IMG/VR virus record: IMGVR_UViG_637000095_000001
DNA from: a virus
DNA: 64,000 bases
Direction: 5' to 3' (one strand)
The first letter of the stretch is position 1, and every line of letters begins with the position of its first letter. Of the stretch, positions 1 through 8,370 are shown piece by piece. The position numbers were made by a program, and so were the translations under genes. The notes beneath the pieces are model-generated. The model was not told where the DNA came from, did no database searches, and was given only the letters and a program-made list of their open reading frames with translations.

Positions 1-480
1 TAAAATAGCGTGGTATGTCGGATAGTGCTTCAGGTCGTCCTTCTTGAACTTATAGAATTTATCCACCCGCTTGAAGTGCATGAGCATCTTTTCCACAAAG
101 CTGTCATAGATCGGATAGTCCTCCGGGAAATGGTGGCTGCAATACTTGGTGGCAAACGAATAAAAATTGATGGTCTTCTGGCCGTTAACCTTAACCACGG
201 CAATGTCGTTTACGAGAGTCAGATCCCGGTTGCCAAGACGTTGGTCGATATCCAAATCGACTATGTGTTGGGCAACGGTAAATGGTGAAAAAATGTTCGT
301 GCTGTAAAAGTCGTTCAGCGAACAGACCTTGATCAGGACATCATCCATATCGACATTTCTGGGGTACGTCTCAGCGAACAGTTTTCTGAGGCTGCTCTCC
401 TGCAGTACATAATTGTCCAACGAATCCCACCGCTCCAGATACATGCCCACCTGCTCCGCCGACGGTCTGACTTTATTCAT
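1..480 (-). CDS. Hypothetical protein, 3'-truncated by window edge; possible HhH-GPD/glycosylase-like fold
   Basis: Manual translation from ATG at 480: MNKVRPSAEQVGMYLERWDSLDNYVLQESSLRKLF...NFYSFATKYCSHHFPEDYPIYDSFV..., open to base 1; ATG overlaps the stop of 473..1588 (TATGAATAA). Absent from the ORF track because it has no stop in the window. Fold guess is weak. Confidence 0.75.
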   Translation of the reverse strand, partial: MNKVRPSAEQVGMYLERWDSLDNYVLQESSLRKLFAETYPRNVDMDDVLIKVCSLNDFYSTNIFSPFTVAQHIVDLDIDQRLGNRDLTLVNDIAVVKVNGQKTINFYSFATKYCSHHFPEDYPIYDSFVEKMLMHFKRVDKFYKFKKDDLKHYPTYHAIL

Positions 481-1588
481 AGAGCGCATCCTCGTTGATA
501 TAGGTTGAGTCGTCGTCCCCCTCAGGCTTGATTGTGAAAAGGCATCGGTAGCAGCCTTCTTCCTTCAGGTATTCAATCGGGTCATCTTCCAACCGGAAAA
601 ACTCACGCAGCTTTTTTGACAGGCGCGGTTTCTGGTCTTTGACCTTGAAGGATGCATGCTGGCTCTGCCAATCAATCTGACCGCGAGAATCAGCAAAGGC
701 TCTGAAGAGCTCCCAAGGAATTGTCGGGTTCCCGTTTCTGGTATTGGCCATTCCCATCTGGGTGTAATTGTACTGGCCGTGCGATTTGGTTGTGCGGATT
801 GAAACGGTATGGCCGTCAATAAACTTGATGGTGATGCCGCTCCAGTTGATACCGGCAGGCGTGTCGAAATGGACCATGCCACCGGAATCCGGCTCAGGTA
901 CATCTGCCTGAAAGGTTGCAAATACATCGGTCGCTGACCTAAGAGCCTTCAAGCTACCATTGGCTTGAATGGAAAATTCCTCGCTCAGCACGATACATAT
1001 TGAACCACTCCGGCCCAACAGATCTTCAGTCCGGGGTGTCAATTGTTTGCGGGTTGAAATGATCAGCGCATAAGGAGCCTGACCAAGCAGGCTGACATTC
1101 CTGACGCTTTCGAGAAGTTCGTCCGGGTCATTCTTGAAGGTCAGATAAACCGGAAAATTGAAACCGGCGGTCGGCGTGTAATCACCCAAACGGAAAACAC
1201 CGGGAATGCCATCGAGGGTATTTTCATTTCGTGTAATGCCCAGCCCGGTACAGATGCTTTTGTGGAATGCTGACCGGTTCAATGTATAGACCAGCACATC
1301 CCTCTTGTTCAGTCTGTAAGGCTTCTCTTCCTGCTCTGGGCACACCGCAGCGATATCATCGGCGGCATGCTCGACAACTTTTCTGGGGCAGCCCTGTCCA
1401 CATTCCGTCCGGCAATTGACAGCAGATGCACGCTGATCGGTCAGCTGCAGGAACTTCCTTTCAAATCCGTTGAAGGAATCCCAGCCGCCAAACTCATCCT
1501 GCCATTCACACCACGGGGCATTCTGCTTAGGGTGCTCTTCTAAGAATTGCCAAAGCCGGGTTTCACTCACCGTCATCCTCCGAATCAA
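473..1588 (-). CDS. Hypothetical protein (Cys cluster CxxxCxxxC; possible C-terminal winged helix)
   Basis: 371-aa ORF overlapping its neighbours on both sides; true start may be ATG 1576 or the nearby GTG. Confidence 0.8.
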   Translation of the reverse strand: MIRRMTVSETRLWQFLEEHPKQNAPWCEWQDEFGGWDSFNGFERKFLQLTDQRASAVNCRTECGQGCPRKVVEHAADDIAAVCPEQEEKPYRLNKRDVLVYTLNRSAFHKSICTGLGITRNENTLDGIPGVFRLGDYTPTAGFNFPVYLTFKNDPDELLESVRNVSLLGQAPYALIISTRKQLTPRTEDLLGRSGSICIVLSEEFSIQANGSLKALRSATDVFATFQADVPEPDSGGMVHFDTPAGINWSGITIKFIDGHTVSIRTTKSHGQYNYTQMGMANTRNGNPTIPWELFRAFADSRGQIDWQSQHASFKVKDQKPRLSKKLREFFRLEDDPIEYLKEEGCYRCLFTIKPEGDDDSTYINEDALYE

Positions 1589-2729
1589 CGATGATAAAGC
1601 CCCGGCGGATCAGCCACTCTTCAAGAATCTCGGCGTCATCATCCCGTTTGAACTGAGCCCGGTTACCAGAGCTGAGTGTAACGGTTCGCGGTGTTTTGGA
1701 ATCGGAAAACTTGATCTGGAAGCTGGCCTTGCTCAATCGCCCACCGTTGGGAATCGTGCGCTCTCGCTCTTCCAATGAAGCAAAGATGTCCTCGGCTTTG
1801 CGGATCTCGATCTCTTTGTGTGTTCCGCCACGGAAGATCTGGAACTCCTTCAGGCGCACCCAATCAATCCCTTCAACATCATCACAGAGGACGGACGCCG
1901 AACCTACCTCCCGTAAGGGCTCCAATGTGAATTTGCTTTTGCCGTCGAAAAACTCGCTGTCACCGAAAAGGTGCAGGCCAAACTTCGTGCGGTACAGTTC
2001 CTTTTCACCCTTGGAGCGGGCGTTCATCCGGATCTCACCATTTTCCGGGCTGTAAACGAGCACGTCATATTTTTCCGGCCGATAGAACAGGCTTTTGGAT
2101 TCACCATCCTTGATGATCGACTCCCGGGTGAATGGCTCTCCATGGCGGACAAGGAACCAGACATAGTCCTCTTTCACATAGATGAAAACCTTGGAAGCAC
2201 GGCCACGGCGTTTCTTGGCAAACCATTCATCCAGATCCGCTTCGAGGGCGGTGATGGTTTCTTCGCTTGGCTCTTCAAAATCAGGAATGGTTTCACGGGT
2301 GCATTTGAAATATTCAAATGAGCGCGGGCGAAACAGGAACTGCTCGGCATGGAGTCGCTCGATGATGTTGCGGTCCTGCACCCATACCTGCAAAGCCAGG
2401 TCACCGTAAGCGGCATCTTCGGAGATGTTGACATCGATCTCAGTGTCGGCAATGGCCTCCTGTATCAGGTCGAAGCCTTCAGGAGTCGACATCTCGTTAA
2501 TGTAATAGAGAGCTTCCGACATCTCAGGAGGTGTGCTGGTGTTCGGGTTCAGCAGCACGTTACTCATGACTGTATAATCCAGTCCGTTTTCTGCGGCTGC
2601 CGATGGCAACTCTATCCCTCGCCCGGATAGATATTCGGTGTAGGGCTCAAGAAATGTGATCAGATGGCTCCGGTCGATCTTCCGGAGCATTTCCGGCTTC
2701 GAAAAGCGGCGAAGGTTTAAAGTTGCCAT
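1563..2729 (-). CDS. Hypothetical protein in the repressor operon
   Basis: 388-aa ORF with AGGAG upstream of ATG; 50 nt downstream of lexA, same strand. Confidence 0.85.
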   Translation of the reverse strand: MATLNLRRFSKPEMLRKIDRSHLITFLEPYTEYLSGRGIELPSAAAENGLDYTVMSNVLLNPNTSTPPEMSEALYYINEMSTPEGFDLIQEAIADTEIDVNISEDAAYGDLALQVWVQDRNIIERLHAEQFLFRPRSFEYFKCTRETIPDFEEPSEETITALEADLDEWFAKKRRGRASKVFIYVKEDYVWFLVRHGEPFTRESIIKDGESKSLFYRPEKYDVLVYSPENGEIRMNARSKGEKELYRTKFGLHLFGDSEFFDGKSKFTLEPLREVGSASVLCDDVEGIDWVRLKEFQIFRGGTHKEIEIRKAEDIFASLEERERTIPNGGRLSKASFQIKFSDSKTPRTVTLSSGNRAQFKRDDDAEILEEWLIRRGFIIVDSEDDGE

Positions 2730-2779
2730 TAATTTCTCCTGTTTTTTTTAGCTTATAGCTGTCCTTACATAGTGTTCTC

Positions 2780-3403
2780 TCAAATTCGTTTACGGCCCAC
2801 CACTTTGCCGAGAATCCTCAATTCATCTTCAGGTTTGACCCTGATCGGTTTCAGCCTCGGATTCTCCGGGACCAGCTCGATGAGCTCATTATCAATTTTC
2901 AGCCTTTTGACCGTGGCTTCATCGTCAAGCAGCGCAATAACGATATCACCGTCTTCGGCAATTGGCTGACGCCTCACAATGATCAGGTCGCCGTCGTTTA
3001 TTCCGGCATCGATCATACTGTCGCCCTGTGTGTACAAGGCAAAGCACTTGCCTGATCCGACAACGGATGCTTCCACCAGAACCTCGCCCGTGATGTTCTC
3101 ATGAGCGAAAATCGGATGACCGGCTGCAACCGTGCCGACAATCGGAACCGCCACAAGGGCGACCGCGTTTGTCTGAGGATGCTTGGTCACGGTCAGACCG
3201 CGAGCCTTACCTTCCTCTCTTTTCAAATAACCTTTGCGAACCAGCTGGTTGATCCGGTCATGCACACTGGCGTGACTGATTCCAAATGTTTCGCTCATTT
3301 CCTTAACCGTCGGCGGATACCCTTTGGCTGAAACGTACCGGCATATTTCATCAAGTGTTTCCTGCTGCAACGGCGTAATGTCGTCTTCTCTGTTTCTGCC
3401 CAT
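2780..3403 (-). CDS. lexA: LexA-family repressor (S24 autopeptidase)
   Basis: N-terminal wHTH (GYPPTVKEM...GISHASV), Ala-Gly cleavage site VAAG, catalytic GDSM and TVKRL. Confidence 0.92.
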   Translation of the reverse strand: MGRNREDDITPLQQETLDEICRYVSAKGYPPTVKEMSETFGISHASVHDRINQLVRKGYLKREEGKARGLTVTKHPQTNAVALVAVPIVGTVAAGHPIFAHENITGEVLVEASVVGSGKCFALYTQGDSMIDAGINDGDLIIVRRQPIAEDGDIVIALLDDEATVKRLKIDNELIELVPENPRLKPIRVKPEDELRILGKVVGRKRI

Positions 3404-3459
3404 AGCGTCCTCCTTCCTTTAAAAGACAGAGAGCCCCAGTTTGGGCCGAATAACACATA

Positions 3460-3488
3460 AATATACGACCTTATATCCATCAGGTCAA
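3460..3488 (-). promoter_or_regulatory. Sigma70-type promoter of the lexA operon
   Basis: Minus strand TTGACC-N17-TATATT, about 55 nt upstream of the lexA ATG. Confidence 0.75.
3467..3486. promoter_or_regulatory. Candidate repressor operator GACCT-N10-AGGTC (copy 1)
   Basis: GACCT tatatccatc AGGTC overlaps the -35 box and spacer of the lexA promoter; second copy at 6775. Confidence 0.6.
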
Positions 3489-3509
3489 GAAATCTTATAA
3501 ATAAAACTT

Positions 3510-3540
3510 CCGACGGATTGAAGTCCCTCCCGGTAAGTAA
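3510..3540 (+). promoter_or_regulatory. Element-specific bipartite promoter motif, copy 1
   Basis: CCGACGG-N13-CCGGTAAGTAA upstream of the small ORF/DUF2924/recombinase operon. Confidence 0.8.
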
Positions 3541-3610
3541 CCTCCGAAAGTTCCGAGGGTTCGTCTCGGACATGAGTTAGAAACCAGACAATTGGCCGGA
3601 TGCCAGGCAG

Positions 3611-3660
3611 AGGCGGTTGTGGGTGCTGAAAAACGCGCATCCCAACCGCCTTTTGTTTTT
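3611..3660 (+). terminator. Leader terminator/attenuator hairpin
   Basis: AGGCGGTTG(T)GGGTGC...GCATCCCAACCGCCT followed by TTTGTTTTTT. Confidence 0.6.
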
Positions 3661-3706
3661 GGCACCCGCAGCTTCCCTCATCGGCACCGGCCCAACGGAG
3701 GCCCTT

Positions 3707-3970
3707 ATGCTTGATGTGGAATTAGCACCAGAAAACCCTTACTCAAACCAGTTGACCGACGACCAATTGCCGGATGCTGAAGGCATTAACCCGGAGCAGC
3801 GGCTGGATGCCATTGCGGCCATTCTGGCCATTGCCGCACTCAGGAGTCGGTATCGTAAGGCCAATAATGCCAACAACTTAAAGAATGTTGCAGATTCTTC
3901 CGGAACCTTCGGAGAAGGACTTGATTCTTCTGCCAGAAAGAGCGTCATTCATGACAACCGAGTCCTGTAA
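3707..3970 (+). CDS. Small hypothetical protein upstream of DUF2924
   Basis: GGAGG RBS then ATG 3707; 87 aa, PEQRLDAIAAILAIAALR helix. Confidence 0.6.
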   Translation: MLDVELAPENPYSNQLTDDQLPDAEGINPEQRLDAIAAILAIAALRSRYRKANNANNLKNVADSSGTFGEGLDSSARKSVIHDNRVL

Positions 3971-3990
3971 TCGAATATAAGGAGTTGAAA

Positions 3991-4497
3991 ATGAATGACT
4001 TGAAAAACAAAAAAACGGAGCCGACCAAGACCTCGGTGTTGAGGCAATTGGCAACGCTCCAGAACATGAGCCTTGATCAGCTCAGAGAGAAATGGCTGGA
4101 CCTTTATGGAACCGAGCCACCCCAGTACAAGAAGCAGTTTCTGGTTAAACGGCTGGCGCACCGGATTCAGGAGCTCTTTTACGGCGGCCTGTCGGAGCAG
4201 GCCAAATCTCACCTGAAGAAAGTTGCCGAGACCGATCCGGTGGCAACGGTCATCCGCAAGATTCCGGAAGAACGAAAATCACAGGAAGCCATTCTGCCGG
4301 GCACCCGGTTTGTCCGGATTTGGAACGACCAGCGCTATGAAGTGATCGCCCGGGAAAGCGGCTTTGAGTACGACGGGCGCATCTTCAGATCACTGAGCGC
4401 CATAGCGAGGGAAATCACAGGCACCCGCTGGAACGGCAAGATCTTTTTCGGCCTGAAGAACAGTCACAGAAAAAAGGAAGGTGGTCCGAATGCTTAA
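3991..4497 (+). CDS. DUF2924 family protein
   Basis: LREKWLDLYG..PP...L..RLAHRIQE..YGGL and PGTRFVRIWN...F.YDGR..RSLSAIAREITGTRWNG..FFGL; AAGGAG RBS. Confidence 0.85.
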   Translation: MNDLKNKKTEPTKTSVLRQLATLQNMSLDQLREKWLDLYGTEPPQYKKQFLVKRLAHRIQELFYGGLSEQAKSHLKKVAETDPVATVIRKIPEERKSQEAILPGTRFVRIWNDQRYEVIARESGFEYDGRIFRSLSAIAREITGTRWNGKIFFGLKNSHRKKEGGPNA

Positions 4498-6073
4498 CAA
4501 TAACAACACACAAAACGGCCAGCGTAAAACGCTCCGCTGTGCCATCTATACCCGGAAAAGCCACGAGGAAGGTCTGGATCAGGAATTCAATTCACTCGAC
4601 GCCCAGAGGGAGGCCGCCGAAGCCTACATCGAAAGTCAGAAGCTGCAGGGATGGAAGGCCATCCCTTACCGATATGATGACGGCGGCTTTTCCGGCGGCA
4701 CCATGGAACGTCCGGCTCTGCAGAGACTGCTGGCGGATATCGATGCCGGTAAGATCGATGTCATCGTTGTTTACAAGATCGACCGGCTATCCCGATCCCT
4801 GCTGGACTTCATGAAGATGATTGAGCTTTTCAATGAAAAGGAAGTGAGCTTTGTATCCGTCACCCAGCACTTCAGCACCACTGACTCGACGGGCCGCATG
4901 TTTCTGGGAATCCTGATCACCTTTGCCCAGTATGAGCGTGAGGTCATTGGTGAGCGTATCCGGGACAAGGTGGCCGCCGCTAAACGCCGGGGAAAATACT
5001 GCGGCGGGCCTGCTGTACTCGGTTACGACGTGGACCGGGAAAACAAAAAGCTGCTCATCAACCAGAGCGAGGCACCGCTGGTGAAACTCATCTTCAGGCG
5101 ATACACGCAGGTGGGATCGGCAAAGAAGGTGGCGCAGGAGCTTAACGAGCAAGGATACAAAACCAAGTCATGGACCACCAAGAAAGGCAAGGAGCGGATC
5201 GGTACCGAATGGAACACGGCTCAGGTCTATCGCCTTCTCAACAACAGGCTCTATATCGGAGAGATCGCTTACAAGGGTAAAAACTATCCGGCGGAGCATG
5301 ATGCCCTGATTGATCAAAACACATGGGACAAGGTTCAGGCGCTGCTCTCGGAAAACAATCGAACCAAGATGAGCAAGGCCCGGGTGAAAATGGTCTCGCC
5401 CCTGAGCGGAGTGATCCGGTGCGGCCACTGCGACAGCGCCATGGGCATCACCTATACCAACAAAGGCGACCGCCGCTACTCCTATTATATATGTGAAAAG
5501 GATACCAAACGCGCCGTCAGCCGGTGCCCTTTGAAACGGGTTCCTGCCGGAGACATCGAGTCGGTGGTACTTGACCAGCTGGGAGCCGTATTCAGAACAC
5601 CGACCTTGGTGGCCAAGACCTACTTTGCCGCCAGAGAGATCGAGGCCGAAGAACGAGAGCGCTTGCAGGTCCAGAAGAAGGAACTCGAACAATCCCTGCA
5701 GAGCGTCAGGCAGGAAGCTCTGAAGCTGATGTCGCCCGACAATGATGATCCCGACCGGAACAGCCGACTGCCCTTGGTCAATCAGCAGGCCGTCGATCTG
5801 ACCAAACAGCTCACCAATGTATCGGCCCGATTGAAGGTAATTGATACCGAACAGATTTCCGAGGGGGATGTATCCGAAGCCTTTCAGAGCGTGAAAACCT
5901 TCTGGGAGGATCTGTTTCCCCTCGAGCGAAACCGACTGATCCAGCTTCTGGTGGAAACCATCGAAATACGGGAAACGGGAATCGACATGGAACTGAAAAC
6001 CAACGGTCTCACAAACCTTGTCACCGAGCTGGCCGGTCTGGCCTGTGAAGTCAGGGAAAGGAGTAACAGCTGA
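4490..6073 (+). CDS. Large serine recombinase (integrase)
   Basis: AIYTRKS (catalytic Ser), DDGGFSGGTMERPALQRLL, KIDRLSRS, recombinase domain, Zn ribbon CGHC...YYIC. Confidence 0.95.
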   Translation: MLNNNNTQNGQRKTLRCAIYTRKSHEEGLDQEFNSLDAQREAAEAYIESQKLQGWKAIPYRYDDGGFSGGTMERPALQRLLADIDAGKIDVIVVYKIDRLSRSLLDFMKMIELFNEKEVSFVSVTQHFSTTDSTGRMFLGILITFAQYEREVIGERIRDKVAAAKRRGKYCGGPAVLGYDVDRENKKLLINQSEAPLVKLIFRRYTQVGSAKKVAQELNEQGYKTKSWTTKKGKERIGTEWNTAQVYRLLNNRLYIGEIAYKGKNYPAEHDALIDQNTWDKVQALLSENNRTKMSKARVKMVSPLSGVIRCGHCDSAMGITYTNKGDRRYSYYICEKDTKRAVSRCPLKRVPAGDIESVVLDQLGAVFRTPTLVAKTYFAAREIEAEERERLQVQKKELEQSLQSVRQEALKLMSPDNDDPDRNSRLPLVNQQAVDLTKQLTNVSARLKVIDTEQISEGDVSEAFQSVKTFWEDLFPLERNRLIQLLVETIEIRETGIDMELKTNGLTNLVTELAGLACEVRERSNS

Positions 6074-6492
6074 TGAAGAAGATTAAACCAACCATCAAAC
6101 TTTCAGACAGCGGAAACCTGCACATCCATATCCCCATGTTCATCCGGAGAATGCGCGGCCGCAAAATGGTATTCACACCTGATACGCTGGACGGTGAAAA
6201 CGAAGGCATGCCGGAAACGGTGCAGACGGCCATTGTCCAGTCGCTGGCCAGAGCCTTTTCATGGGCGGACATCCTTGAGAGTGGTGAGATCAAGTCCATC
6301 AGCGAGCTGGCCAGAGATCTCGATGTGGATTCATCCTACGTCGCCAGAACCCTGAAACTGACCACACTCGCCCCGGACATTATCGAAGCCATCATTAACG
6401 GTGAAGAGCCCAGCGGATTATCCCTATCAAAGCTGGTGAAAACATTCCCTCTCGACTGGAGTGAACAGCGATCATTCTTTGGTTTCAGCTGA
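6073..6492 (+). CDS. Recombinase-associated HTH protein
   Basis: TGATG coupling; SISELARDLDVDSSYVARTLKL helix-turn-helix. Confidence 0.8.
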   Translation: MKKIKPTIKLSDSGNLHIHIPMFIRRMRGRKMVFTPDTLDGENEGMPETVQTAIVQSLARAFSWADILESGEIKSISELARDLDVDSSYVARTLKLTTLAPDIIEAIINGEEPSGLSLSKLVKTFPLDWSEQRSFFGFS

Positions 6493-6519
6493 TCGCTATC
6501 CCAAACCATCATCCTCAAC

Positions 6520-6544
6520 AGCCGACCTTGTGTCGGCTTTTTTT
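6520..6544 (+). terminator. Intrinsic terminator
   Basis: AGCCGAC cttgt GTCGGCT followed by a T-run. Confidence 0.8.
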
Positions 6545-6774
6545 ATGCCCTGACGAGTGAGCCCAACGAAATTTCACTGAGGGGTGGTAAAAAAAGTTAA
6601 AAAATATTTCCCCGCCTCATTCAATCAAATCCCACTCAAATTCAAGGCATTAGCCAATCCAAGCGCATCTGTATCGGGTGAAATTTCAGTGGTCCAACGA
6701 AATTTCGCCAAAGAAGGGTGACAGGTCTGGTGAACAGAAAAACGTTCACGACCTCACCCGGAGAAATCATGCCG

Positions 6775-6794
6775 GACCTGTCTTCCGGGAGGTC
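6775..6794. promoter_or_regulatory. Candidate repressor operator GACCT-N10-AGGTC (copy 2)
   Basis: (G)GACCT gtcttccggg AGGTC(C), just upstream of the RBS of the operon containing the sigma gene. Confidence 0.55.
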
Positions 6795-6814
6795 CTCAAC
6801 AAAGGAGGTTCGGC

Positions 6815-7141
6815 ATGAACCAGATAAAGAAGACAGAACTAAACGAGCCGCAGCAAAAGCTCATCGAGCTGATGCAGCAAATCAACTTCGGGCGCATTTC
6901 CAACATACCGGTTGTGGGCGGAAATCCCGAACTCACCGCAGACACCATTATCGAGCGTGAAATCAAACTGGGCGGCCAGAACGGTAACCGTCCGGAGCTG
7001 GCCAAGGATGACTTCACCCTGAAGCAGGAAGTGCTCGCTCTTATCGAACACCTTACCCGCATGGGTGATGGAATCATCCGTCATCTTGAAATCAAGCATG
7101 GGTTGCCATTCCTGATCCGTATCGAGGAACGGGCAGCATAA
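6815..7141 (+). CDS. Hypothetical protein (108 aa)
   Basis: AAGGAGG RBS, ATG 6815. Confidence 0.8.
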   Translation: MNQIKKTELNEPQQKLIELMQQINFGRISNIPVVGGNPELTADTIIEREIKLGGQNGNRPELAKDDFTLKQEVLALIEHLTRMGDGIIRHLEIKHGLPFLIRIEERAA

Positions 7142-7356
7142 CAAACTGAGAATTTAGACACTTCGACAACAAGCTGGACGCAAGGCGGAGGCTGTTGTGG
7201 GTGTCGCCGAGCCAAACCTGACCGTGTGTTTATCAGCACGGCAGGTGGCAGAAAAGGCGAACCTGCGACACTCCGCTTGTTGGATCAGCTCCTTCCTCTG
7301 TTTCCGGCCCGTGCCGACACCCACGCGGTGCTCCTCCTCGCTCCGAGGAGGACCAA

Positions 7357-7941
7357 ATGTTTTATCGAAATTCCTATGACGGCATCGATGGCTATGCCGC
7401 AGACCTTATTCGGCACAAGGCAAGACAACTGGTGGGTAAAGCAGGACTGACAGAAGACGATCGGCAGGATCTCGAGCAGGAACTGATGATCGATCTGCTG
7501 GGCAGGATGAAGCACTTCAATCCAGCCAAGGGCAAAAAGACAACCTTCATGACCCGCATCGTTGAGCGGCGGATCTCAACCATTCTGGAAGCCCGCTTCG
7601 CGCAATGCCGGGACTGGCGCAAATGCACCGCCTCTCTCAACGATCCCATTCCGGGCGGAGATAACGATTCCGCCGAGCGTATCGAGCAGGTCTGCAGTGA
7701 TGGACAGATGGGACATCACGGCCGGGATACCAACGAGCAACGGCAGAACGACATCCGCTTCGATCTCGAACGGGTCATTGCCGCACTGCCGGAAGACCTG
7801 CAGGAGCTCTGCGAAAAACTGCAGTCGAGCAACATGGCTGAAATCGCAAGGGAGATGGGCGTTCCGCGCAGCACCCTCTACGGAAAACTGACCAAGCTGC
7901 GGGACGCATTCCGGGATGGTGGATTGGAAGAATACCTCTGA
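7357..7941 (+). CDS. Sigma-70 family (ECF-like, regions 2 and 4) RNA polymerase sigma factor
   Basis: Region 2: DRQDLEQELMIDLL...FNPAKG..TTFMTRIVERRI; region 4 HTH: LPEDLQELC...SNMAEIAREMGVPRSTLYGKL; GAGGAGG RBS. Confidence 0.85.
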   Translation: MFYRNSYDGIDGYAADLIRHKARQLVGKAGLTEDDRQDLEQELMIDLLGRMKHFNPAKGKKTTFMTRIVERRISTILEARFAQCRDWRKCTASLNDPIPGGDNDSAERIEQVCSDGQMGHHGRDTNEQRQNDIRFDLERVIAALPEDLQELCEKLQSSNMAEIAREMGVPRSTLYGKLTKLRDAFRDGGLEEYL

Positions 7942-7945
7942 TCGA

Positions 7946-7976
7946 CCGACGCATCGCCCGGGGTTCCGGTAAGTAA
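7946..7976 (+). promoter_or_regulatory. Element-specific promoter motif, copy 2
   Basis: CCGACGC-N13-CCGGTAAGTAA, 4 nt after the sigma stop, heading the replication operon. Confidence 0.85.
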
Positions 7977-8049
7977 GCATCGTGCCGCATGAAGCGGACG
8001 ACCGGGGCCTCGGTAAACAGAAAACCTGCAAAACAACAGGAGATTAACA

Positions 8050-8370
8050 ATGGAAACTTACAAGTATCGCTTTGATCAGTCGGTCCCGGCTCAGGACTTG
8101 GAAGATACCTTCATGCTGGCGTTGCTGGCTGTGGAAAGCATGTATGGACACTCCAGAGTGAGGATGGAATCCCGCTTCAATCTGGATAAGCAAAACCGCA
8201 CCTGCTTTATCGACGCAGCGACCAAGGTCGGCTGTGATCTGGCGAGCATCTTTACCGGATTCGCCACCAAGGAGTATGGCGAACGAGCGGTAATGATCGA
8301 CCGTGAGCCCGCCAGTGGCGGATGCGCCTGCAATGCAAAGGCACCTTCAGCAATGGAGGTGGCGGTATGA
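8050..8370 (+). CDS. Hypothetical protein
   Basis: AGGAG RBS; ATGA overlap with the next gene. Confidence 0.75.
   Translation: METYKYRFDQSVPAQDLEDTFMLALLAVESMYGHSRVRMESRFNLDKQNRTCFIDAATKVGCDLASIFTGFATKEYGERAVMIDREPASGGCACNAKAPSAMEVAV

Follow-up and report, generated by a model that had tools for sequence, protein, structure and literature searches.

The window analysed here, a 64,000-nucleotide stretch of viral DNA (IMG/VR virus record IMGVR_UViG_637000095_000001), corresponds nearly throughout to a single prophage of ~65 kb (a temperate phage that has integrated into its host), and it carries both a lexA gene and an operon encoding a sigma factor of the extracytoplasmic function (ECF) type. 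On balance, we think it likely that the phage LexA has a lone operator at its own promoter (PlexA), that a second and partly similar palindrome ahead of the sigma operon belongs to a leader which masks a ribosome-binding site (RBS), and that the link between LexA and the sigma factor is indirect. This differs from the first-pass annotation of the same DNA, in which LexA dimers sit on both palindromes, DNA damage cleaves LexA and so directly derepresses the operon of orf108 and the sigma gene, and the sigma factor then fires ten promoters. Many of the elements named in that annotation are indeed present, but the direct two-step switch is not supported, because a credible LexA box is found at the lexA promoter only. 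Our argument is made in silico and is built on the family membership of LexA, on the operator and its uniqueness, and on the patterns of conservation at the two sites.

The lexA gene (2780-3403, minus strand) encodes a repressor that combines a DNA-binding domain of the LexA winged-helix type with an S24 autoprotease domain. The product qualifies as a true LexA, with a score of 182.9 bits on NCBIfam TIGR00498 (cut-off 110.95), and it matches PF01726 at 56 bits over residues 8-69 and PF00717 at 117 bits over residues 87-202. The cleavage site (VAAG, A94-G95) and the dyad (S129 in GDSM and K166 in VKRL) are both in place, and A94, S129 and K166 are invariant across 16 homologues. The phage-borne LexA of the first-pass annotation is thus upheld, and these residues suggest that the protein is probably self-cleaving and stimulated by RecA. 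We also looked at G001, a related complete 3.9-Mb genome with two prophage copies, in which the late genes are 93-98% identical to those of the window and the early region ~70-76%. There, the prophage LexA is the sole match above the LexA family cut-off, and the other S24 matches comprise one UmuD-like protein, a fragment in prophage B and two weak ones. Judged by these matches, the G001 host may be without a LexA of its own.

Site 1, the palindrome GACCT-N10-AGGTC at 3467-3486 (GACCTTATATCCATCAGGTC), overlies the -35 element and spacer of PlexA, a sigma-70-type promoter on the minus strand (3460-3488) made up of TTGACC (3488-3483), a 17-nt spacer and TATATT (3465-3460). PlexA matches at 10 of 12 positions and is the only sigma-70-like promoter to emerge from a scan of 2700-8100, so that sequence and promoter scan together confirm the arrangement originally described for the lexA promoter. 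The exact palindrome occurs twice in the window against 0.05 expected, a count that none of 100 shuffles reached; when one mismatch is allowed there are three occurrences against 1.95 expected, which is not above chance.

What site 1 does is indicated by its relatives. More than 40 related loci across phyla have a single site of 21-32 bits, located 63-134 bp upstream of lexA, as scored with a LexA-box position weight matrix derived from 14 training sites that themselves score 21-32 bits. The arms of these sites hold ACCT and A8 in 28 of 28 half-sites and the central four bases vary freely, as fits a site for a dimeric repressor. In an alignment of eight relatives, the -35 element, the box and the -10 element are the conserved blocks of a divergent region. 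The window operator reaches 29.8 bits, and the next best position in the window 7.1 bits. Phylogenetic footprinting across these loci identifies the site at 3466-3487, with the family consensus TGACCTGAT-N4-ATCAGGTCA, as the LexA operator, and predicts that it is autoregulatory. The core CCT-N10-AGG lies at 3469-3484 (CCTTATATCCATCAGG) and recurs upstream of lexA in loci from Magnetococcales and in 11 of the 16 related loci examined first. The operator belongs to the CCT-N10-AGG class, which is reportedly that of the LexA of Magnetococcus marinus MC-1, where the box was defined by mutagenesis. The claim that the box is unlike those of E. coli and Bacillus therefore stands, but it does not represent a new kind.

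The operator is also unique. For the strict pattern (GACCT-N10-AGGTC) as for the extended one (ACCTKA-N6-TMAGGT), the 3.9 Mb of G001 contain perfect matches at the lexA promoters of the two prophages and nowhere else. G002, a third relative available as a 90-kb viral record, has its one perfect match to the extended pattern at the lexA promoter, and there the strict pattern is off by a single, outermost base. Given this uniqueness in the window, G001 and G002, the single target of LexA is most probably its own operon. A CCTNA-N6-TNAGG match also occurs inside lexA at 2969-2990 (CCTCACAATGATCAGG), of which one half-site (ATCAGGTCG) is perfect. Its score is 5.1 bits in the window and 8.7 bits at the same place in relative L016, and it is probably a coincidence of the coding sequence. 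We also weighed a divergent sigma-70 promoter on the plus strand beneath the LexA box, with TATAAA at 3496-3501, but rejected it, as its -35 element is poor and its hexamer is not conserved.

The second palindrome, site 2, reads GACCT-N10-AGGTC at 6775-6794 (GACCTGTCTTCCGGGAGGTC), extends to GGACCT/AGGTCC at 6774-6795 and is placed 20 nt ahead of orf108, the first gene of the sigma operon. Its presence agrees with the first-pass annotation, but its description there as the same operator holds for the outer five to six bases of each arm only. The half-sites are GACCTGTC and GACCTCCC, compared with GACCTGAT in the operator. They read CCTGT and CCTCC at the core, and so lack the invariant A8 in both arms and G7 in one, whereas A8 is retained even in the Magnetococcales variants (CCTNA). 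Real boxes reach 21-32 bits on the LexA-box matrix; site 2 has -2.3 bits, which puts it 54th among the 63,979 positions of the window.

Conservation of the two sites differs as well. LexA relatives were taken from genome contigs and orf108 relatives from viral contigs. Exact copies of site 2 are found in 14 viral loci in which orf108 is at least 93% identical (there 46 nt before orf108), in L016, and in L020, a relative with nearly the same 110-nt leader throughout. Thus the palindrome is kept before lexA in more than 40 loci, but before sigma it is not kept beyond the clade of the window and one relative that has its leader, so that it fails the conservation check proposed with the first-pass annotation. 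About 26 sister-clade loci combine a lexA box of 27-32 bits with a best score of -0.2 or less in the 400 bp ahead of orf108, and no site of 8 bits or more was found upstream of orf108 in any related locus, whether from genome contigs or viral contigs. In the collinear G001-A prophage, the 3' half of a leader terminator stands where the right arm would be, and in G001-B the position of site 2 is occupied by unrelated sequence. Among close relatives the site 2 spacer is invariant, as conserved as its arms, whereas the centres of the lexA boxes differ in the same set. A promoter scan of 6493-6815 found no plus-strand sigma-70-like promoter, and site 2 overlaps no promoter recognised in it. A strict GACCT-N10-AGGTC sequence 369 bp before orf108 in one distant locus (L177) is not homologous to site 2, is unlike the lexA-side box of that locus and was taken as chance. 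Judged on sequence, site 2 does not appear to be a credible LexA operator, and we consider direct repression of sigma by LexA unlikely.

Site 2 is most likely part of a hairpin in the leader RNA of the sigma operon. The 131 nt before and into orf108 are predicted to form two hairpins, with a minimum free energy of -50.6 kcal/mol (z -4.6) that was matched by none of 200 shuffles. Hairpin 1 (6716-6759, plus strand), in which GGGUGA..AGGUC..GUGAAC pairs with GUUCAC..GACCU..CACCC, is predicted in all eight versions that were folded, with stems that have changed and yet still pair. In hairpin 2 (6768-6817, plus strand), CAUGCCGGACCU (6768-6779), which includes the left arm of site 2, would pair with AGGUUCGGCAUG (6806-6817); site 2 lies inside this hairpin, and the predicted fold buries the Shine-Dalgarno sequence and AUG of orf108. 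The hairpin 2 pairing recurs in diverged relatives. Moreover, loci in which orf108 is only 42-46% identical, and in which no lexA was detected over the retrieved stretch, still have the left arm and the bases that follow it (GCCGGACCTGTC) and, at the AUG, the complementary GGTCCGGC, which argues that the left arm is old, tied to the RBS and independent of LexA. We suggest that the left arm (GCCGGACCU) is an old anti-RBS element which would pair with AGGUUCGGC at the Shine-Dalgarno sequence and AUG of orf108. The right arm could compete for the left arm, because its sequence copies that of the RBS-side partner (AGGUCC compared with AGGUUC). It appears to be a recent, clade-specific addition, and in G002-type phages it reads CGGTCC, a change from AGG to CGG that still permits RNA pairing and breaks the LexA core.

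Most relatives from other phyla have a longer, four-hairpin leader, comprising the same hairpin 1, a second hairpin, an intrinsic terminator with GCCGGACC in its loop and a fourth hairpin before the RBS. The leader type found in the window resembles a shortened version of this structure. Together with the clade-specific right arm, this could mean that site 2 is functionless at both the DNA and the RNA level, a chance by-product of a deletion which remodelled the ancestral leader terminator. Such an origin is very unlikely in our view, because the region is nearly invariant across relatives while their flanking proteins are only 43-70% identical, and because the fold is so much more stable than shuffled sequence.

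Assignment of site 2 to an RNA leader is not free of difficulty, and several points weigh against it. A perfect 6+6 palindrome that shares the outer bases of the operator is rare by chance (0.05 per window), and it falls in the single intergenic region in which one would look for a repressor site, before an operon with no sigma-type promoter of its own. The minimal MC-1 LexA motif, which is said to be CCT-N10-AGG and to have been defined by mutagenesis, occurs in site 2, and weak binding of LexA there is possible on that account. Furthermore, no promoter was found for the sigma operon, so that the placement of site 2 in a transcribed leader rests on conserved hairpins and not on a mapped start; support for the hairpins is thermodynamic and positional, with G-C/G-U changes and few true compensatory changes. 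Anyone inclined to retain LexA dimers on both palindromes could add that 14 close relatives and L020 have site 2 in exact form, and that lexA and orf108-sigma are linked across phyla. Against two operators stand the negative matrix score, the loss of A8 from both arms, the absence of any comparable site before orf108 in the sister-clade and genome-contig loci and the conservation of the left arm where no lexA was detected. We accordingly hold the cascade from LexA through sigma to ten promoters to be improbable, although it should be said that, if true, it would constitute a neat, self-contained SOS switch for the phage. What is supported instead, an autoregulated phage LexA with a box of an already known class, is ordinary.

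How, then, might a damage signal reach the sigma operon? In many relatives the genes lie in the co-directional order lexA-orf388-orf371-orf108-sigma, and at two loci lexA is immediately upstream of orf108-sigma. Several relatives have no terminator between orf371 and the leader, and in these, derepressed transcription from PlexA would enter the leader terminator. This read-through route is closed in the window and in some relatives, because the 6-kb lexA-recombinase module is inverted. The mechanism we infer begins with LexA bound to its single operator, where it would repress lexA-orf388-orf371, given that the operator covers the -35 element and spacer of PlexA. DNA damage would then promote RecA-stimulated self-cleavage of LexA and derepression of the lexA operon. 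The sigma operon, for its part, would be governed by its own upstream elements, namely the CGAAATTTC palindromes described below and the structured leader, which in most relatives includes an intrinsic terminator, and LexA would be coupled to it indirectly only. Any coupling between LexA and sigma is, in other words, probably indirect.

A different possibility is that LexA governs nothing beyond an SOS-inducible cargo or defence operon, represented by orf388 and orf371, and that the lysis-lysogeny decision and sigma are under the control of other factors. This idea is compatible with parts of the mechanism above, and it would account for the fact that the lexA operon is the sole predicted LexA target. 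Its partners in that operon are orf388 (1563-2729, minus strand), which in related elements always directly follows lexA (39-88% identity), and orf371 (473-1588, minus strand), which follows lexA-orf388 in about 15 loci. Neither could be assigned to a sequence family in searches of domain, phage-family and NCBIfam collections. The structural model of orf371 (predicted local distance difference test, pLDDT, 85.5) has a Cys/His cluster, a PD-(D/E)xK-like domain and a C-terminal OmpR/PhoB-like winged helix. By VIA comparison, residues 103-232 resemble nuclease folds (Z 6.4-7.8), a likeness in favour of the cargo or defence idea, and residues 250-357 resemble winged-helix DNA-binding domains at Z scores of 5.0-6.3, which are middling and make the winged-helix assignment a lead only. 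The same applies to the occurrence of Trans_reg_C in 31% of the members of an orf371-related cluster. Full-length orf371 gave no match in Foldseek, and only the domain-level VIA matches are usable, as leads. For orf388 there was no structure match and its PDB profile hits were insignificant; an Atlas lead to GAPS4b_N, at 0.77, was rejected as too weak.

The idea of exchangeable cargo draws further on a sister prophage clade (L135 3017-6243 and 12 more IMG/VR loci within L134-L149, and G001 2913420-2913739), which retains the LexA box at 30-32 bits. Here lexA is a 77-aa open reading frame with the DNA-binding domain only and no protease domain, and the places of orf388 and orf371 are taken by a gene of 262 aa and one for a QatC-like PP-loop protein of 700 aa (PADLOC QatC, 179 bits). 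The presence of this QatC-like set in their place suggests that the slot behind the LexA box holds exchangeable cargo. Set against a role confined to cargo are the position of lexA beside an integrase-type recombinase, the usual place of a phage repressor, the lack of any other repressor candidate seen in the lysogeny module, and the location of lexA-orf388-orf371 immediately ahead of orf108-sigma in most relatives, some of which lack an intervening terminator. We regard a purely cargo-directed LexA as a serious alternative, though a doubtful one, and prefer an autoregulated LexA whose influence on sigma, if any, is indirect.

Turning to the sigma operon (orf108-sigma, 6815-7941), the sigma gene (7357-7941, plus strand; TIGR02937, Sigma70_r2, phrog_1740) encodes a product that scores 46.1 bits on TIGR02937 over residues 16-183 (cut-off 42.9) and 28 bits on Sigma70_r2, and that is, by these matches, an ECF-type member of the sigma-70 family with regions 2 and 4. 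The bipartite motif TCCGAC-N16-CCGGTAAGTAA, taken as the sigma-type promoter, has ten copies in the window, all on the plus strand, against 0.19 expected, and the number originally reported is correct. Copy 1 (3509-3540) faces orf87, the DUF2924 gene and the recombinase gene, lies 23 bp from the LexA box and is present in all eight aligned relatives; copy 2 (7945-7976, plus strand) is directly 3' of the sigma gene. No copy was found from 3530 to 7966, and the orf108-sigma operon accordingly has no sigma-type motif, as the first-pass annotation had noted.

The partner gene orf108 (6815-7141, plus strand) is always 5' of sigma and precedes it in 80 of the 80 viral loci retrieved. Its product belongs to no Pfam, PHROG, NCBIfam or PADLOC family and has no sequence match in the PDB. 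The model (pLDDT 81) consists of two helix-plus-hairpin repeats, and comparison with PDB structures matched no fold, the best Foldseek E-value being 0.18 and the best VIA Z score 3.0; matches in the Atlas are clusters of hypothetical proteins only. The orf108 product may be a partner or regulator of sigma.

Upstream of the leader, within 6567-6708, are three CGAAATTTC-type palindromes (6567-6577, 6678-6688 and 6698-6708) and an A-rich block (6588-6612). Palindromes of this type spaced ~131 bp apart, together with the AAAAAAAGTTAAAAAA block, are kept upstream of the sigma operon in relatives of several phyla, that is, in part of the family. Among distant relatives, a terminator-like hairpin replaces the first CGAAATTTC palindrome and the second is no longer symmetric. 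We rejected these palindromes as an attP site, since in G001 this region lies in the interior of the integrated prophage. A further leader stem-loop (3612-3660, plus strand; GGCGGTTGTGGGTGC...GCATCCCAACCGCC) lies ahead of the recombination genes, downstream of sigma-type promoter copy 1; it is conserved in the alignment and has a T-run in the window phage. A similar GGCTGTTGTGGGTG element occurs in the 215-nt gap between orf108 and sigma (7142-7356).

Between lexA and the sigma operon lies a recombination module on the plus strand (3708-6492; PF11149, PF00239, PF07508, PF13408; phrog_14161), in which orf87 (3708-3970), with a conserved start, is followed by a DUF2924 gene (3985-4497), a large serine recombinase gene (4481-6073) and orf139 (6073-6492), all on the plus strand. 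An intrinsic terminator 3' of orf139 (6520-6548, plus strand) is succeeded by a 270-bp non-coding region and then, on the plus strand, by orf108, the ECF-type sigma gene and replication genes. The 6-kb module made up of orf371-orf388-lexA and orf87-DUF2924-recombinase-orf139 (window 473-6545) occurs in at least three orders or orientations relative to orf108-sigma, and in two of three of these orders lexA reads toward sigma. The loci concerned are L004 and L007 (G002); L005, L008 and L097 (G001-B); L006 and L096 (G001-A); and L022-L030. Both orientations are present in G001, bounded by the same ~240-bp end block, in prophages sized at ~62 and ~65 kb from flank comparison.

Twelve RNA-seq runs, which come from four studies, and small DNA-labelled runs of cultured organisms match the stretch 2700-8100 at 100%; oil-field and landfill metagenomes match it at ~73%. 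In the four runs examined it is covered by long assembled pieces at flat depth. The phage thus resides in cultured organisms for which RNA-seq runs exist, and its order of induction is measurable. The conserved leader predicted to hide the RBS of the sigma operon is likewise directly testable.

The wider significance of these observations lies in the distribution of the module. This type of LexA, its two partner genes and the ECF-sigma module together form a widespread phage family, with members in Desulfobacterota-like, Planctomycetota, Acidobacteriota and Magnetococcales records, and its spread may explain why the MC-1 LexA reportedly does not control the usual SOS genes. As a more speculative proposal, and one we put forward with considerable reserve, the CCT-N10-AGG LexA lineage, probably including that of MC-1, would be the repressor of a cross-phylum family of temperate phages. 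It would always accompany orf388-orf371 and orf108-ECF-sigma, control only its own operon and pass the damage signal to sigma indirectly, either via an action of Orf371 on the CGAAATTTC palindromes or through transcription that reads on into the terminator or anti-RBS leader, and it would be the only LexA in some hosts, such as that of G001.

Several known systems provide useful comparisons. In the R-pyocins of Pseudomonas aeruginosa, the RecA-cleavable, LexA-like repressor PrtR restrains PrtN, a positive regulator of a large late cluster (PMC12066065). This is how a model with two operators would work. However, PrtR is CI-like and PrtN is an activator, whereas the window phage has a true LexA and a sigma factor, and a PrtR/PrtN-type repressor operator on the promoter of the regulator is not supported in the window, where the credible box is confined to the lexA promoter. 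Coliphage 186 Tum, CTXphi rstA and GIL01 represent phage switches that are controlled by the host LexA. They share with the window phage the reading of the SOS signal via a LexA box in a phage regulatory region, but they borrow the LexA and box of the host, whereas both are supplied by the window phage itself. PBSX Xpf is a phage-encoded sigma factor for late genes. Like it, the window sigma factor is a small, early-encoded protein of the sigma-70/ECF type with a matching, repeated bipartite promoter before late operons; unlike it, the window sigma factor is always preceded by a 108-aa partner of no known fold and by a structured leader.

A further parallel is with MC-1 itself, where LexA is said to be co-transcribed with two genes of unknown function and reportedly does not bind to recA or uvrA. 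The window phage resembles this reported arrangement in having CCT and AGG ten bases apart at the lexA promoter, two co-transcribed genes of unknown function and a LexA without ties to the usual SOS genes. In Magnetococcales, two loci (L032 and L033) encode a LexA that is 49-50% identical to that of the window in the order lexA-orf388-orf371, with upstream boxes of CCCTAA-N6-TTAGGG or GCCTTA-N6-TAAGGC, and no umuD-like gene was found within 6 kb of the Magnetococcales lexA operons. The window family differs from MC-1 as reported in its longer arms (ACCTGA-N6-TCAGGT), in a lexA gene that is clearly phage-borne and in having no umuD-like gene following it in the loci examined. MC-1 itself is not among our loci; its LexA probably belongs to the same phage family as that of the window.

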